From a virus (lineage: Duplodnaviria; Heunggongvirae; Uroviricota; Caudoviricetes), in the IMG/VR virus record IMGVR_UViG_2541047909_000003: a DNA stretch of 34,617 nt; one strand, given 5' to 3'. The notes under the pieces are model-generated. The model searched no databases and was not told where the DNA came from. It saw only the letters and a list, made by a program, of their open reading frames with translations. Both the position numbers and the translations under genes were made by a program. Shown one piece after another: positions 3,948-30,255 of the stretch (position 1 is its first letter; the number at the start of each line of letters is the position of its first letter).

Positions 3948-6900
3948 TCAGCTAATCGTGATGCCTGCAGTGGCTTTCTTCATCACCACAACCAGCAAAT
4001 CGCTGATACTTGCTGTGGGATACCAGTTATTTACCAGCCATGCTGACACCGAAAACTCCAGTGTCATGTGACCGTGACCGGCAGGCATATCAATAACACC
4101 ACTGTAAATCAGCGTATTATCCAGCGCGGTACGGTTATAAATTTCAGCACCGTTTTTCCGCACTATCAGACGGCATGAGGAGTAAATATCAGTATGCTCT
4201 TTCTCATGTTTAGCGCCGCTGAATGCCACCGCCGGAATAACAATCTGCCGGTCAAACGGCTGATCGTCATAAACCCTGACGGTAATGGTTCCTGATGGCC
4301 ACCGCTCCGGTGCACGGGAGTCCCGGGGGAAAGCTTTGCCCACTGTTTTAACGAGATCGCCTTCAATCTGGTTCGCGGACAATTTTCCCAGAACCCGACA
4401 GTTCTCGTTAATCGTGACGTTGTTGAGCGTCCCGGAGTTCGCATTCACGTTACCGCTGATATCGGCATTTTTCGCCGTCAGCCGCCCGTCCGGTGTCAGG
4501 GAAAATGCCGGAGGATTACCGCCGCTGGTAATGGTCGGAGCCGTCAGGCGTTTCAGGAACACGTCGTTCATGAATATCTGATCGCCCTGACCAACAAACA
4601 TCGGCTTTGTGTTGCCATTCGCAGGATTAATCATCGCAATCCGGTCAGCAGCCAGAAGCACCTGACTCTGCATACCTGCTGGCGTATTCTCAATACCGAC
4701 TCCGATACCCGCAATATAAAGGCGTCCGTCCTTCATCTGCTGCAGTTTCACGGCCCACATGCTGTTCAGGTTATTATTTGTATCAACCTGAACTTTCTGT
4801 ATCTGCTGGATTGCCGCACTCTGGTCTTCCAGTTTTTTATTGACGGTCTGCGTGATTTCATTGCTGACATTCGTAATGGACGTCCTGATTTCAGCCAGGT
4901 CCGGCGCAAGCTGACCGTTATCAATCTGCGTCCACAACTCCTGGGCCAGATGTGTTTTCCCGATTTCTCCTTTGAAAAAATCCAGGTAACCTTCCGCATC
5001 ATCGCTCGCCCGACCGACAGCCTCCACGAATGCCGATTTGCCAACGGTGTTCACACTGCGAACGTAAAAATAATAATCATGGCCCGGTTTGATATTGATA
5101 CTGGCGGCTATCCAGTACAGCGCCGTACCAAGATAGCGGGCTGTGGTTTCAACCTGCCTGATATCGGTAATCCGCTTTTCTGAGAACCAGAACTCAAACT
5201 GTACCGTCGGGTCATAAACAGCAAGATGCGGCGTGGCGGTTATCTGAAAATAGCCCGGCGTCAGCTCAATCCGCGACGGTGCTGCCGGTGCGGCAATCCG
5301 GAAGGTGGTGGTGGCAGGTTCACCCTGCTGGCCATAGCTGTTTATCGCCCGCACCGTCAGGGTGTATTCCCCGAGCGGCAGGCCGCTGAAACGGTGCTCC
5401 GTGTCTGCGGTGATGGCGGTGGTCACCAGTCTGGCATCCGTTCCCTTACCACTGGTCAGGCGCAGACTGAAGCGCACGCCCTTCACCACCCGCGGCGTGT
5501 CCCATTTAGCCTGCGCCAGATACTGGCCGTCAGCTGCACTCACCTCCACCGTCAGGTGCTGTACTGCCGGTGGGATGACGCTGTTCAGGGAACCTGACTG
5601 CGGCTCAAAGCGGGCACCGTTATCCACGATGGCTTCTTTTTCCGGTACGTGCTGCACCGCCGTGATGGCAAAGGTGCCGTCCGTGTTTTCCCGGACGGAG
5701 ACACAGCGGAACAGGCGACGGCGCAGTGACGGCAGGGAGAGTCCCCACACCCCGTATGTCTCCACACCATCAGGCAGGGTACTGACCTGTATCCGGTCCG
5801 GCGCGGGGTGTGCGGTGATGTCCACACTCACCGGCTTACCGCTTCCGTTAATCAGGTTCACCGCCGATGTACCTGTCTCCGGCAGGGTAACCTCACGGTC
5901 CAGCGTCAGGGTGCGCGTGGCAGCATCAATGGACAGGACACGTCCGCCGGTCAGGGTCCCGGCATAGTCATTATCACAGATTTCAATAATGTCACCGGGT
6001 GTGTGCCGCAGCCCCTGAGACCCGAGCGTGAAATCCACCGTCTGCGTTTCCAGCAGTTCGGTCTTTATCACCCACAGTCCGGCACGGTGGGCCTGACCGC
6101 GGCTGGTACAGCCGAACGCGTCCATCTTCAGCAGGTTGCGTCCGTAGCGCAGTATGGCTTCCGGGTCTTCCACCAGTTCCGTGGAGGTCTGCCAGCCGTT
6201 CTGCGGGTCGGTGTAATTCACCTCCACCGCCGTGTGCCGGTCCTTCAGGGCACTGAAGCTGTAGCGGAATCCCACGCCGTTATCATCCACCACCACATCG
6301 CTGTTGGTGTACGGCCACACCACATCCGACGGGCGGTCCTGAACGAACGTCAGCGTCTGACCGTTCCATACCGGCATACAGCGCATCGCAGAGCAGAAAT
6401 CACTGAGAACGTCCCACGCCTTACGCTGTTGTGCCAGGTACGCATTAAAGGTCATCCGCGGCTCGGTCCCCCCGAAACCATCCGGGACCGTCTGGTCGCA
6501 GTACTGCCCGATGGCATACAGCGCCCACTTGTCCACATCCGCCGCCCCCAGACGTTTTCCCATGCCGTAGCGCGGGTGAGTCAGCATGTCCCACAGACAC
6601 CAGGCCGGGTTGTTGCTGTATGCCGGTTTCAGACTGCCGTCCCAGATACCACTATACGTGCGTTTTTCCGGGTCATAGTTTGACGGCACCTGGATGATGC
6701 GACCGCGGATATGGTAGTTCACCGTCATCTGCTGGCCGCCGAACTGCTCCGCATCCACCTGCAGCCCCACAATGGCCGTGTTCGGGTAGCACTGTTTCAC
6801 ATCGATGATTTCGGTGTATGACGACCACAGCGTCTTATTCTGCAGCTGGTCCGTGGTGCTGTCCGCCGTCTCCCTGACCATCCGGATGTTAAAGGGCCGG

Positions 6901-7421
6901 GGAGGCAGATTATCCAGAATCACCGAGGCCAGGAACTGTGAGGTGGTCTTGCCGTTAATGGTGACGTCCTTTTCTGTCACCCAGTTACCGTTACGCTGTA
7001 ACTGAATCAGCAGGCGGACGGATGCCGGGTTACGGTCACCCTTTGAGGTGGTCTCCACCAGTGACTGCACCCCGAAGGTAACCCGCAGGCGGTCAATGTT
7101 CGCGGACGTAATGGTGCGCGTCACCGGTTTTGCCTTCGTCACTTCCACGCCCAGTCCGGTTTCAGCTCCGGAGGACTCAAAGCCTTCCGGTGGTGTCTGC
7201 TCCTGCTCCCCGGCACGCCAGACCGCGGTCACACCGTGTATCACGGGATTGCCGTCCGTGTCCGTCAGTGGGGTTTTGTTCACCAGAATACTCTGCAGTC
7301 CCTTCACCGGACCTTCTATCGGTCCCTCACCAATCGCATCAATCACACTCATCATCTGCGTGGATTTGAGATTATCCTTCGCCTCACGAGGCGTGTGTGC
7401 CTTACCGCCACCTTTTCCCAT
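3948..7421 (-). CDS. J: host specificity (central tail fiber/tip) protein J
   Basis: 1157 aa; N-terminus [39 protein letters not shown] and long co-linear similarity to lambda J as recalled. Confidence 0.95.
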
Positions 7422-7524
7422 ACAGCCTTCCCCTGAATAAATTAACCGCCACTTGCCATTCCGTACAGAAGTCGGATATCCTTCGCCCGAAAAGCATGAA
7501 ACACATTTCTGCCATGCTAAAGAG

Positions 7525-7554
7525 AAACCCCGGTATCAGCAGATACCGGGGTTT
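7525..7554. terminator. 13-bp perfect hairpin (bidirectional terminator-like) inside expanded I-J spacer
   Basis: aaaccccggtatc-agca-gataccggggttt, T-rich on both sides. Confidence 0.4.
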
Positions 7555-7624
7555 TCTTTCATGCCCACCGATAATCCTGTTGGTTAAAACCGGTAATGGC
7601 ATAAAAATTCTGAATATCTTCACA

Positions 7625-7760
7625 TTTTCACACACTGACTGTGGCGCTTATAATTTCGCTGCGTTAGTGTTTTTTTGCCCGAGTAACAAAAACAACTCCT
7701 TAACATTGATCTTCATTTGTCTGTCCCCGCAGCTCCGCGATCACTGCGGGATTTTTTTAT
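7625..7760 (+). ncRNA. candidate small RNA (about 100 nt) antisense to late operon in I-J spacer
   Basis: Possible sigma70 promoter (TATAAT at about 7649-7654 with weak -35), CA-rich body (aacaaaaacaacucc), and strong intrinsic terminator cccgcag-N11-ctgcggg + T7 at about 7726-7759 on plus strand. Confidence 0.3.
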
Positions 7761-7763
7761 GTT

Positions 7764-8444
7764 TTATCCCTGTCGCCCGACAACCACGACCATTCCGCCC
7801 CCGCCTTCATCACGGGTGCTGATGTCCTGGGATATACGGCGGGAGCCAACCAGCATTTCCCCGTAAGGCACCGGCATCGGGTTCCCCTGGGCAATCATGT
7901 TATCCAGCGAGGAAAAGTACGTGTTCTGTCTGCCGTTATCCGTTGCGCGGTAATCCGGTGTTTTTGCCTTCGGGGCCAGCATCTGGGCCACACCGCCCAG
8001 AATCATGCTGGCTCCAAGTGAAAACAGCATCGTGGTGGCAGAAAAACCACCGGCTGCCAGGGCTGAACCCCATAACGCCATTGATGCCCCGGCAGTGAAG
8101 AAAGAGCCCACGATGGCTGCCGCCCCCAGCACAATCTGCAGTCCACCCTTTCCGGCCCCGGCCAGTCGCGGCACAATATGGATGACCGTTCCCTCACCCA
8201 GCTGTTCGTGAAGACGGGCGTACACCGCCTCCGGTGCCGTGTCATAACCGGCAATACGTATCTGGTACCAGCCTTCGTTCATCTGACGGCGAAAGCCCGG
8301 CACCTGTAACGACAGCGCCCGGATGGCTTCCGCTGCCGTGTTCACATACAGGCTGAGGCGGCGGCCAAATCGTTGTAAATCCCCGTGAAGGCAGATGCGT
8401 GCCAGTGGCGGTGACGCCAGACAGAATGCGTTCGTCGTTGCCAT
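7764..8444 (-). CDS. I: tail tip assembly protein I
   Basis: 226 aa; MATTNAFCLASPPLARICLHGDLQRFGRR resembles lambda I N-terminus; Gly/Ala-rich C-terminal region. Confidence 0.9.
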   Translation of the reverse strand: MATTNAFCLASPPLARICLHGDLQRFGRRLSLYVNTAAEAIRALSLQVPGFRRQMNEGWYQIRIAGYDTAPEAVYARLHEQLGEGTVIHIVPRLAGAGKGGLQIVLGAAAIVGSFFTAGASMALWGSALAAGGFSATTMLFSLGASMILGGVAQMLAPKAKTPDYRATDNGRQNTYFSSLDNMIAQGNPMPVPYGEMLVGSRRISQDISTRDEGGGGMVVVVGRQG

Positions 8445-19654: not shown

Positions 19655-19990
19655 ATGAAGTGGATTGTGATTGATACAGTTATCCAGCCATCATGCGGAA
19701 TATCTTTTTCAGTCATATGGAGTAAAATAAAATTAATAATCTGGTATCAATCGGATGCTTTCTTACCTCCTGAAAGTATATTTACACTGACTCACACAGG
19801 CATCATGCTCAATAACAAAGTGCTACCTGTAACCATTTACAACGTAGTGCCATTCAATAAAACATTCTGGAATTTAATCAAAAACAGCCAGGAATGCCCT
19901 ACAAATACAGATAACGTATTGAATGAATGCTTTAATAACCGTTGCACTCTGCAAATATGTCCTTATGGACTAAAACAACAAAGTCCATAA
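19655..19990 (+). CDS. hypothetical AT-rich, Cys-containing protein (111 aa), antisense to late operon
   Basis: AAGGAA RBS about 7 nt upstream of ATG; strongly AT-rich codon usage unlike neighbours; C-terminal cluster [26 protein letters not shown]; stop lies in an 11-bp stem-loop. Confidence 0.45.
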
Positions 19991-20021
19991 GGAGTTTACT
20001 CACATCTGACAAAATCAATAT

Positions 20022-20048
20022 AAACAGCCCCTCCGGAGAGGGGCTGGA
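20022..20048 (-). terminator. terminator-like hairpin (minus-strand orientation)
   Basis: cagcccctc-cgga-gaggggctg 9-bp stem followed by T/A-rich tract on minus strand. Confidence 0.4.
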
Positions 20049-20411
20049 GAGTGGCGCTATGTGCCATTGCATGGTGCCGGGTGCCTCCCGGTGAATTCAG
20101 TACCAGCACCTGAATCCGCGATTATCCCATATACCTACTCGCTGATTGCCCCTCCGCACAGGGGGATTCACCATGCGATGTAATTTTTAACAAATTCTCC
20201 GGCAGCCAGACAATCATCAAGCTGTGGAATTGTGAGGTATTTAAAAATTTCAACGGGTAACTGATACCCTGCTAATCGCCTGATGCTTTCTTTTTCAGCA
20301 ACGGGAAAGCAACAACCACACACCCGCCACCAAAACACCATCAGACAGCACCGACATTATCCGGCTGCTGAAGTCCACCATCACCACCAGAAACAACAGG
20401 AGTGCAACCAC

Positions 20412-20469: not shown

Positions 20470-20546
20470 TGGACCGCCATCGGGGACTTGAACCCCGCGC
20501 AGCCAGCTTCGAAGGCTGGCGCTCTATCCCGATGAGCTAATGGCGG
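20470..20546 (-). tRNA. tRNA-Arg (anticodon UCG)
   Basis: Full cloverleaf by hand-fold: 7-bp acceptor stem, D-arm, anticodon loop CTTCGAA, T-arm CGGGG-TTCAAGT-CCCCG, encoded CCA. Confidence 0.8.
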
Positions 20547-20553
20547 TATGTGA

Positions 20554-20629
20554 TGGTGGCCCTTGCTGGATTTGAACCAGCGACCTGGCGATTATGAGTC
20601 GCTCGCTCTCACCACTGAGCTAAAGGGCC
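20554..20629 (-). tRNA. tRNA-Ile2 (anticodon CAU, lysidine-type; ileX/ileZ-like)
   Basis: Full cloverleaf; anticodon loop CTCATAA; body nearly identical to E. coli ileX as recalled; encoded CCA. Confidence 0.85.
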
Positions 20630-24998: not shown

Positions 24999-25154
24999 TT
25001 ACTCCTCAGGTTCGTAAGCTGTGAAGACAGCGACCTCCGTCTGGCCGGTTCGGAGTCGTACCTCGCAGAGGTCTTTCCTCGTTACCAGTGCCGTCACTAT
25101 GACGGTTAAACAGATGACGATCAGGGCGATTAACATCGCCTTTTGCTGCTTCAT
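24999..25154 (-). CDS. hok: Hok/Gef-family type I toxin
   Basis: MKQQKAMLIALIVICLTVIVTALVTRKDLCEVRLRTGQTEVAVFTAYEPEE, near-identical to HokD/RelF as recalled. Confidence 0.85.
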   Translation of the reverse strand: MKQQKAMLIALIVICLTVIVTALVTRKDLCEVRLRTGQTEVAVFTAYEPEE

Positions 25155-25330
25155 AGCCTGCTTCCCCTTGCCTTTCGGCACGTAAGAGGCTAACCTACAT
25201 TTGTGAGACATAGATTGGGCCTCAGATTAATGTTAAGCGTCTTGCAGGACGCGAAATGTTAACTGGGGCTTTTCTCTATCTGCCTTTCAGTGTTCATGCC
25301 TGAGACAGATAGCCTCAAGCACCCGCAGCC
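25155..25330. promoter_or_regulatory. hok leader with predicted antisense sok RNA and fold-back elements
   Basis: Leader contains inverted segments (gcttgaggctatctgtctcaggcatg) typical of hok mRNA structure; exact sok ends not determined. Confidence 0.35.
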
Positions 25331-29688: not shown

Positions 29689-30255
29689 TAGCTAACCAAC
29701 GAAGCTAAGGTTGGTAATTAAGGAGTTCTCCACGGATGAGGTGGAGTGCGTGCGCCGGACACGGGTGAGCATCCGGCACAGACAGTTTACTGAAAGGATA
29801 TTTCCCTGAAAGGTCAGACCATAACGCGAAAGCGCACGGCGAGGTAGCTGGTTCATAGATAGCCTGTCGTTAAATTTTCGTCGACCGTGCGCTTCCGGTT
29901 GTGGCAATCCGCGAAATGGCGCGGCGGTGAGTATGGCGGGGTTATTCCTTCCCCGTTGAGGACACCGGGTTGTCAGGTTGACCATACGCTTAAGTGACAA
30001 CCCCGCTGCAACGCCCTCTGTTATCAATTTTCTGGTGACGTTTGGCGGTATCAGTTTTACTCCGTGACTGCTCTGCCGCCCTTTTTAAAGTGAATTTTGT
30101 GATGCGGTGAATGCGGCTGAGCGCACGCGGAACAGTTAAAACCAAAAACAGTGTTATGGGTGGATTCTCTGTATCCGGCGTTAATTGTTAACTGGTTAAC
30201 GTCACCTGGAAGCACCAGGCACCGCATCACAAAATTCATTGTTGAGGACGCGATA

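Follow-up and report, generated by a model that had tools for sequence, protein, structure and literature searches.

The long spacer between the tail genes I and J in a 34,617-nt stretch of tailed-phage DNA (Caudoviricetes; IMG/VR record IMGVR_UViG_2541047909_000003), referred to here in its entirety as the window, is probably occupied by a small RNA (sRNA) gene of the moron type, a self-contained unit that lies between the two genes and is directed against the late operon. The RNA predicted from this unit is a new sequence variant (allele) of EcOnc22, EcOnc23 and EcOnc24, the Hfq-bound prophage RNAs of Escherichia coli O157.

Architecture of the predicted small RNA gene

The J gene corresponds to the open reading frame (ORF) of 1157 amino acids (aa) at 3948-7421 and the I gene to 7764-8444, both on the minus strand, the latter with a match to the Pfam family Lambda_tail_I (E-value 2.3e-16). 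The ORF table and the annotation of phage lambda give a spacer of 342 bp in the window as against 60 bp in lambda, which agrees with an initial annotation of this DNA in which I and J were placed tens of bp apart in lambda and about 340 bp apart here; the feature at 7422-7763 is real and the earlier observation is confirmed. Most of the E. coli relatives have an I-J spacer of 240 bp. The spacer and the elements assigned to the sRNA unit are as follows.

7422-7763, no strand assigned: I-J intergenic spacer, 342 bp
7609-7624, plus strand: dyad TCTGA-N6-TCACA resembling a CRP site, upstream of the -35 hexamer and abutting it; possible activator site
7627-7632, plus strand: -35 hexamer TTCACA (promoter scan)
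7649-7654, plus strand: -10 hexamer TATAAT (promoter scan), fixed in position in all alleles
7661-7758, plus strand: predicted sRNA of about 98 nt with a predicted start, allele of the EcOnc22/23/24 family by homology to the spacers of the Sakai prophages Sp15, Sp14 and Sp11
7670-7676, plus strand: 5' U-run (U7), 5-9 nt long among the scorable relatives
7682-7696, plus strand: (ARN)5 tract AGU AAC AAA AAC AAC, candidate motif for the distal face of Hfq
7696-7716, plus strand: candidate seed made up of CUCC, the allele-specific patch UUAACAUUG (7700-7708) and the conserved AUCUUCAU, mostly unpaired
7726-7758, plus strand: intrinsic terminator with a stem of 7726-7732 and 7744-7750 and an 11-nt loop, followed by A and U7

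The promoter scan of 7000-8200 returned three promoter-like sites where 0.7 were expected. The initial annotation had noted a TATAAT element on the plus strand, opposite to the tail operon, together with a weak -35 element. The former is found at 7649-7654, whereas TTCACA is to be regarded as a good -35 hexamer since the promoter TTCACA-16-TATAAT matches the consensus at 11 of 12 positions with a spacer of 16 nt. Transcription is predicted to start at G7661, 7 nt past the -10 hexamer, and a count from there to the terminal U7 at 7752-7758 yields the length of about 98 nt. The strong intrinsic terminator that had been described about 100 nt downstream is present at 7726-7758, where folding and the promoter and terminator scan identify a stem of 7 bp (CCCGCAG/CUGCGGG) followed by T7 at 7752-7758, and it abuts the stop codon of I.

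The body of the RNA, earlier described as CA-rich, is actually A-rich and contains five consecutive ARN triplets (A, purine, any nucleotide). This repeat is the pattern expected of a binding motif for the distal face of Hfq, and an internal ARN repeat in combination with a terminator and its U-tail predicts binding to both the distal and the proximal faces of the protein. The same combination is shared with the class II Hfq sRNAs such as ChiX and MgrR, an analogy of sequence features without homology. At least three consecutive ARN triplets are present in 27 of the 29 representative alleles, and the sequence variation within the tract concentrates on the N position. ARN motifs have also been noted in the prophage RNAs AgvB and AsxR (Tree 2014, PMC4104026).

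In the predicted fold, the probability of being unpaired is high over about 7709-7724 and mixed over 7696-7708. Column entropies within the candidate seed amount to 0.57 bits for CUCC, 0.89 bits for the patch and 0.39 bits for AUCUUCAU, while about 1.4 bits are reached in the loop that follows the U-run and in the linker leading to the terminator; the patch is therefore allele-specific without being the most variable part of the RNA.

Homology to EcOnc22, EcOnc23 and EcOnc24

EcOnc22 (Sp15) and its homologues EcOnc23 (Sp14) and EcOnc24 (Sp11) of E. coli O157:H7 Sakai were identified by Hfq crosslinking, and EcOnc22 gave a Northern band of about 85 nt and was destabilised in an hfq deletion (Tree 2014, Table S2, PMC4104026). 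On the current Sakai record each of the three RNAs maps to the I-J spacer of its prophage (Sp15, Sp14 and Sp11) and is encoded on the other strand from the tail genes. The published EcOnc coordinates belong to an earlier version of the Sakai genome and are 133-142 bp lower than those of NC_002695.2; the offset (+133 to +142) was calibrated on AgvB1, AsxR, the yjbJ site and, decisively, the supplement on crosslinking, ligation and sequencing of hybrids (CLASH), with AsxR taken at its described position '282 bp 3' of stx2B' (Tree 2014, PMC4104026). When the coordinates of Table S2 are placed on NC_002695.2 uncorrected, the EcOnc22 peak falls on the J-proximal hairpin, an assignment rejected as wrong because of the earlier genome version.

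The homology between the window and the Sakai units amounts to 76% identity over 114 nt (E-value 1e-18) and spans the -10 hexamer, the RNA body and the terminator. An EcOnc22 read at 2902717-2902749 in the RNase E-CLASH supplement has the sequence GCCTGAAAAATAACTCCATAACGTTAATCTTCA (Waters 2017, PMC5286369). This read equals the segment of the Sp15 spacer that aligns to 7677-7715 of the window, so it is the homologous promoter-to-terminator unit that gives rise to EcOnc22-24. In one EcOnc22 CLASH chimera the terminal sequence ...CUGCGGGAUUUUUUU (also given as ...CUCUGCGGGAUUUUUUU) is linked to an inner part of the EcOnc22 molecule itself, and the 3' end of EcOnc22 is thereby fixed at the U-run (U7). 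The Sp15 unit is predicted to yield an RNA of about 91 nt, as against the Northern band of about 85 nt. Hfq binding, Hfq-dependent stability, size and 3' end are in this way established for the homologue, and the proposal of the initial annotation that a small RNA is encoded on the plus strand against the tail operon is upheld by the promoter and terminator of the unit and by the Hfq-bound homologue. The label 'asxR2', which one CLASH table gives to the EcOnc22 locus, was set aside, since it apparently arose from a text replacement of 'EcOnc2' by asxR and makes no claim of homology.

The window allele shares with EcOnc22/23/24 the I-J locus, the strand, the position of the -10 hexamer, the CRP-like box and the terminator, as well as the layout of U-run, ARN tract, CUCC, patch and AUCUUCAU. 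It differs from them in a better promoter (TTCACA/TATAAT as against TCCGGC/AATAAT), in an A-rich tract that is 6 nt longer, in three substitutions within the stretch that pairs with yjbJ in EcOnc22 (CCUUAACAUU in the window, CCAUAACGUU in EcOnc22) and in the neighbouring J-proximal module, which is a different one and roughly 100 bp longer.

No spacer match was obtained in Rfam at the gathering thresholds, only terminator-like matches below threshold at E-values up to 10, and a literature search with sequence strings found no paper among those covered. Later papers on EcOnc RNAs deal with other genes, namely HnrS, EcOnc27 and StxS. HnrS corresponds to EcOnc10/11/12, is 66 nt long and represses the translation of hha (Poudyal et al. 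2026, PLoS Pathog). Like the EcOnc22/23/24 family it belongs to the multicopy Hfq-bound sRNAs from the late regions of lambdoid prophages in pathogenic E. coli and comes from the same Hfq-crosslinking screen, and it illustrates what an RNA of this sort is capable of, whereas its gene and sequence are different, it occupies another position in the late region and it is absent from the window.

Comparison with AgvB and AsxR

The initial annotation had likened the RNA to the AgvB-type anti-sRNAs that act as sponges of the sRNA GcvB. According to this explanation, a CA-rich tract would mimic the targets of GcvB, titrate it and relieve the repression of dppA and other transporters. The tract GUAACAAAAACAAC does have some C/A character, a duplex of -13.9 kcal/mol with GcvB's R1 region is possible, and AgvB likewise carries ARN motifs and attaches to Hfq at its distal face. 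Both families are prophage-encoded, short and Hfq-associated (by prediction in the case of the window), with an intrinsic terminator, ARN motifs and several alleles in which a variable pairing region is set on a conserved scaffold.

The comparison fails at every specific point, that is, locus, length, sequence, the CACAACA motif and pairing with R1, and an AgvB/AsxR identity was rejected. The genes for AgvB and AsxR are found 3' of PR' and converge with that of an STnc100-type RNA; the two RNAs measure 51-60 nt and have about 42 nt of their 3' region in common, and CACAACA, the target consensus of GcvB R1, is present in AgvB (Tree 2014, PMC4104026). The candidate of the window lies in the tail region rather than at PR', and its predicted length is 98 nt. 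The AgvB1 and AsxR sequences were recovered from the Sakai genome for comparison; alignment with the window RNA, the check that the initial annotation had proposed, gave exact words of no more than 8 nt and one 11-nt match at 91%, and no homologue of either RNA was detected anywhere in the window. CACAACA occurs at seven sites in the window, none of them within 7422-7763. In a windowed pairing test against GcvB R1, the best duplex of the RNA body was equalled by 48 of 200 shuffled sequences, as against -20.3 kcal/mol for the AgvB1 control. The tract also differs in other alleles (e.g. GAAAAAUAAC and UAAGAAUAAU), so it is the ARN pattern and not the CA content that is kept. In AgvB/AsxR, moreover, the variable part is at the extreme 5' end and AgvB pairs strongly with GcvB R1, neither of which is true of the window RNA. 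A GcvB sponge is hence considered extremely improbable.

The Rfam matches above the gathering thresholds in the window are STnc100 (20016-20206, minus strand), two tRNAs (20473-20629, minus strand), a hok/sok-type element (25149-25324, minus strand) and DicF (30030-30081, plus strand), which represent the usual RNA cargo of the late and early regions of lambdoid prophages. The STnc100 of the window has no adjoining AgvB/AsxR homologue, while Sakai Sp10 has AgvB1 at that place. A 12-bp hairpin (TCCTTATGGACT / AGTCCATAAGGA, loop AAAACAACAA) without a U-tail lies beside it at 19960-19993 on the plus strand.

Distribution and variation of the family

Of 5426 complete E. coli genomes, 1807 contain the family; its places number 5495 in all, with up to 10 copies per genome, and no gene is ever annotated at these loci in RefSeq. 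A BLAST search with the unit matched 147 phage records, all of them E. coli lambdoid phages or Shiga toxin (Stx) phages, and when viral contigs were scanned for the pattern, over 120 loci came up, which between them have 59 unique promoter-plus-RNA sequences. The window allele itself is carried, for instance, by E. coli E2865 (NZ_AP018808) and O157:H7 Gim1-1. The position of the -10 hexamer, the 5' GCGUUA, the U-run (5-9 nt), the A-rich ARN tract, CUCC and AUCUUCAU are kept across the family, although the alleles are overall only about 75% identical. The patch reads UUAACAUUG in the window, AUAACGUUA in EcOnc22 and, among others, UUACACUUA, CUGUGGUUA or CUAUAGUUA elsewhere. The terminator is the only helix retained in the consensus fold of the family; its stem is invariant, a part of it (the 3' arm) being fixed by the search pattern.

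Across 141 loci the -10 hexamer varies in sequence (TATAAT in 77, AATAAT in 32, TATCAT in 25) at a constant position, and the position of the -35 hexamer is variable in sequence as well (TTCACA in 91, TTCTGT in 26, TCCGGC in 15). The CRP-like dyad upstream is the only site in the 34.6-kb window with at most one mismatch to TGTGA-N6-TCACA, and a comparison by eye with the 22-bp CRP consensus gives agreement at 14 of the 16 non-spacer positions. Neither half-site, TCTGA or TCACA, shows any difference across the 141 loci, in contrast to the variable N6 and -35 hexamer; as the search pattern fixed TCACA and did not include TCTGA, only the TCTGA half counts as free evidence of conservation. Counted from the first base of the -10 hexamer, the centre of the dyad lies 32.5 bp upstream, at about -44.5.

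Tandem copies of two different alleles on the same strand were observed at two of the compared loci (L070, 4419-4553 and 4644-4784; L080, 542-679 and 995-1128). Near-identical E. coli prophage tail DNA with the sRNA also occurs on three short contigs (L006, L008 and L015) from assemblies labelled as Streptomyces flavalbus, Parendozoicomonas haliclonae and a Clostridiales metagenome-assembled genome, occurrences that most likely represent contamination. Relatives of protein I in other genera were found at 12 loci, and the I-J junctions of these are without the sRNA.

Coding potential of the spacer

The absence of a convincing ORF from the spacer, as stated in the initial annotation, holds in substance and not to the letter: ORFs of 77 and 141 aa do exist, as does one of 22 aa on the tail strand. 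Two of these were assessed as follows.

7402-7635, minus (tail) strand: ORF of 77 aa, with a form of 66 aa that starts at the ATG at 7602 and is listed as hypothetical in phage ASU11; considered non-coding
7648-7716, minus strand: ORF of 22 aa (MKINVKELFLLLGQKNTNAAKL), lying antisense to the sRNA gene; regarded as incidental

A small protein gene on the tail strand, be it the 22-aa ORF (MKINVKELF...) or a longer one that extends across the spacer in some relatives, could in principle account for the conservation of the region and leave the RNA features secondary. Such an explanation would be in keeping with the codon-position periodicity of the variation (0.31, 0.66 and 1.09 bits at positions 1, 2 and 3 over codons 2-11 of the 22-aa frame) and with many synonymous changes (e.g. 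ATT/ATC, GAG/GAA, TTA/TTG). Hypothetical proteins are also annotated here in some phage records, and in relatives whose spacer has the long J-proximal module together with another sRNA allele, a 113-aa ORF with a GTG start (L028, 381-722, minus strand) extends across the entire spacer.

The spacer ORFs are, on the other hand, frameshifted or without a start codon in many relatives, and the ORFs of 77, 141 and 22 aa have no match in Pfam or PHROG. The start of the 22-aa ORF is ATG in 28 of 59 unique variants and ACG or ACA in the others; the homopolymer of 5-9 nt shifts its frame, with resulting peptides of 6 to more than 35 aa and unrelated C-termini; and in allele D, from an Stx phage, the ARN repeat is displaced in register against the ORF frame, and the peptide is altered accordingly. 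The J-proximal 77-aa ORF is interrupted by frameshifting indels in 4 of 14 unique variants. Neither this ORF nor the 113-aa ORF of L028 is annotated in RefSeq, in accordance with the general lack of annotated genes at this place, and for the latter ORF tblastn finds only the same loci. Coding at the spacer is accordingly regarded as unlikely, and a protein gene as the actual cause of the conservation as highly improbable.

The J-proximal hairpin and the I-J junction as a moron site

The J-proximal part of the spacer carries two further features.

7525-7554, no strand assigned: perfect 13-bp hairpin, AAACCCCGGTATC (7525-7537), loop AGCA, GATACCGGGGTTT (7542-7554)
7453-7482, plus strand: weak promoter-like site TTGCCA-18-TATCCT, 9/12 match

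The hairpin, which the initial annotation had listed as a separate element nearer to J, is present as described. The fold of 7486-7562 has a z-score of -7.3, and flanking A- and T-runs, one to each side, make the hairpin look like a terminator on both strands. The module containing it is about 100 bp longer than that of the 240-bp spacers and nearly invariant wherever it is present; an apparent second copy of the module in phage records proved to be merely the palindrome matching itself. Terminator-like hairpins are common at this junction. The 60-bp spacer of lambda has the hairpin ACCGCC-TGCG-GGCGGT followed by TTTGTCATTT, the 240-bp spacers of E. coli carry on the tail-operon strand a 9-bp hairpin (CAGGCACCC-CGGA-GGGTGCCTG) followed by a U-rich tail, among the variants of which one compensatory change from C-G to U-A is seen, and in the more distant relatives from Enterobacter, Rahnella and Pantoea there is a hairpin with T7 that ends 10-11 nt before the J start. 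Such a hairpin is thus an old feature of the I-J junction. In L010, L012-L014, L016 and L017 (about 2100-2190), as in lambda (L154, 746-805), the hairpin with its T-run on the tail-operon strand is the only element before J. The 13-bp hairpin of the window, a separate element from the sRNA unit, is the local bidirectional version of the hairpin of the tail-operon strand. Together with the TTGCCA-18-TATCCT site it could delimit a second putative plus-strand RNA of about 70 nt.

The I-J junction also receives protein genes. In Sakai Sp10 and in strain CFSAN004176, sodC lies at the junction on the strand of the sRNA. The Sp10 copy (ECs_1989, Cu/Zn superoxide dismutase) has its own terminator (L153, 11485-12335, corresponding to NC_002695.2 1963484-1964334), and its insertion replaced the sRNA promoter and left the RNA body and terminator downstream, whereas in CFSAN004176 (L030) sodC occurs together with an intact sRNA promoter. 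A lipoprotein-like ORF is found between I and J in Pseudocitrobacter and in one Enterobacter (L009 and L011, about 2110-2450). Judging from these arrangements, the junction is a moron site. The unit of the window conforms to the definition of a lambdoid-phage moron (Juhala et al. 2000) in being an autonomous promoter and terminator unit between late genes that is absent from lambda. It has the same insertion point and orientation as sodC in Sp10 and differs in its cargo, a non-coding RNA instead of a protein gene.

The mosaic junction, along with the fate of the unit in Sp10, where the promoter was replaced and the RNA body left behind, also fits an explanation in which promoter and terminator are inert remnants of past moron insertions and the RNA is functionless. 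This is very unlikely in view of the retention of the promoter geometry, the TCTGA half, the ARN pattern, CUCC and AUCUUCAU across alleles of such low overall identity, a comparison to which the TCACA half and the 3' arm of the terminator do not contribute, being fixed by the search pattern. EcOnc22 is, furthermore, abundant enough to give a reproducible Hfq-crosslinking peak and a Northern band.

Probable mode of action and targets

The moron-type sRNA gene envisaged here would operate as follows. From the sigma-70 promoter at 7627-7654, transcription would begin at about 7661 and be ended by the terminator at the U7 of 7752-7758, giving an RNA of about 98 nt, and this allele would be expressed in the lysogen from its own promoter. 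Hfq would retain the RNA by way of the 3' hairpin, its U-tail and the (ARN)5 tract inside the molecule. The unstructured segment CUCC-UUAACAUUG-AUCUUCAU would then pair in trans with host transcripts, and the allele-specific patch would decide which transcripts are paired. The conserved CRP-like dyad at 7609-7624 may feed a regulatory input to the promoter.

The only recurrent CLASH hybrid of EcOnc22 is with the coding region of yjbJ (Waters 2017, PMC5286369). For this hybrid, CCAUAACGUU : AACGUUAUGG, an energy of -21 kcal/mol is predicted. The window allele has two mismatches in this 10-nt duplex (paired by hand, the energies being rough) and is therefore not expected to keep the yjbJ pairing.

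A resemblance to hok was observed in the seed region, where CTTAACATTGATCT (7699-7712, plus strand) agrees at 13 of 14 positions and in the same sense with CTTAACATTAATCT of the hok mRNA leader (25224-25237, minus strand); an allele ending in ...CATTAATCT matches the leader at 14 of 14. The likeness is at chance level, the BLAST E-value being about 5.5 for the window allele, and if real it would imply complementarity to Sok and not to hok.

The position of the unit, antisense to the late operon with a terminator that abuts the stop codon of I, raises the question of whether the RNA acts mainly in cis. Its roughly 98 nt, perfectly complementary to the late tail transcript immediately past I, would in that case pair with it, and cleavage or convergent interference would tune J or uncouple it, possibly with an effect on co-resident prophages that carry the same allele; the many alleles and the multiple lysogens with up to 10 copies would fit such a role. 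The ribosome-binding site of J is, however, more than 230 nt away and not overlapped by the RNA. EcOnc22 was detected without induction of the lysogens, in association with Hfq and joined to host mRNAs in chimeras, and late transcription modified by the Q protein should, going by the established biology of lambda, be abundant and hard to interfere with. A predominantly cis-acting RNA is thus unlikely.

Several observations weigh against an Hfq-dependent, trans-acting sRNA encoded by the spacer. Sakai does not have the window allele, and none of the reads in the published CLASH hybrid tables derives from it. The CLASH hybrids of EcOnc22-24 are few, the yjbJ pair consisting of 3 reads; the family is without a validated target, and the target of EcOnc22 was listed as unknown in a 2021 review. 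For targets inside the window, the best duplex (-25.4 kcal/mol) was no better than those of shuffled seeds. No covariation was detected for any structure in the family alignment, the sole conserved helix being one that never varies and is partly fixed by the search pattern. The 3-nt periodicity of variation on the tail strand could suggest coding, although it does not need coding since the N position of the ARN repeat coincides with it. The CRP-like dyad, finally, is displaced upstream by about 3 bp relative to a classical class II site (-41.5), and because of this atypical spacing a CRP-type input to the sRNA promoter may be considered a lead and not a finding.

Biological significance

The EcOnc22 family was seen once, in the Hfq-crosslinking screen of 2014, with no follow-up, and is absent from Rfam and from genome annotation. 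The present analysis adds its exact placement between I and J, its presence in a third of the complete E. coli genomes, often in multiple copies, and its division into distinct alleles that have in common a conserved scaffold, an Hfq-type ARN tract and, in every allele, a CRP-like box. A far-reaching interpretation would regard the I-J sRNAs as an allele-diversified regulator in which the patch between CUCC and AUCUUCAU serves for retargeting, co-resident prophages (up to 10 copies), in addition to any host targets, use allele-specific antisense cross-talk or interference over tail production, each allele being perfectly antisense to the late tail transcript of phages with that allele, and the CRP-like box ties the system to the nutrition of the host; this is speculative and very unlikely.

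Since HnrS (EcOnc10-12) controls Hha and virulence, the EcOnc22-type RNAs are the obvious next candidates for prophage control of host expression. The long I-J spacers of lambdoid prophages should be annotated as sRNA or moron sites and not as empty DNA. The spread of the family, its copy number, the allelic patch and the CRP-like box make it a reasonable target for experiments.

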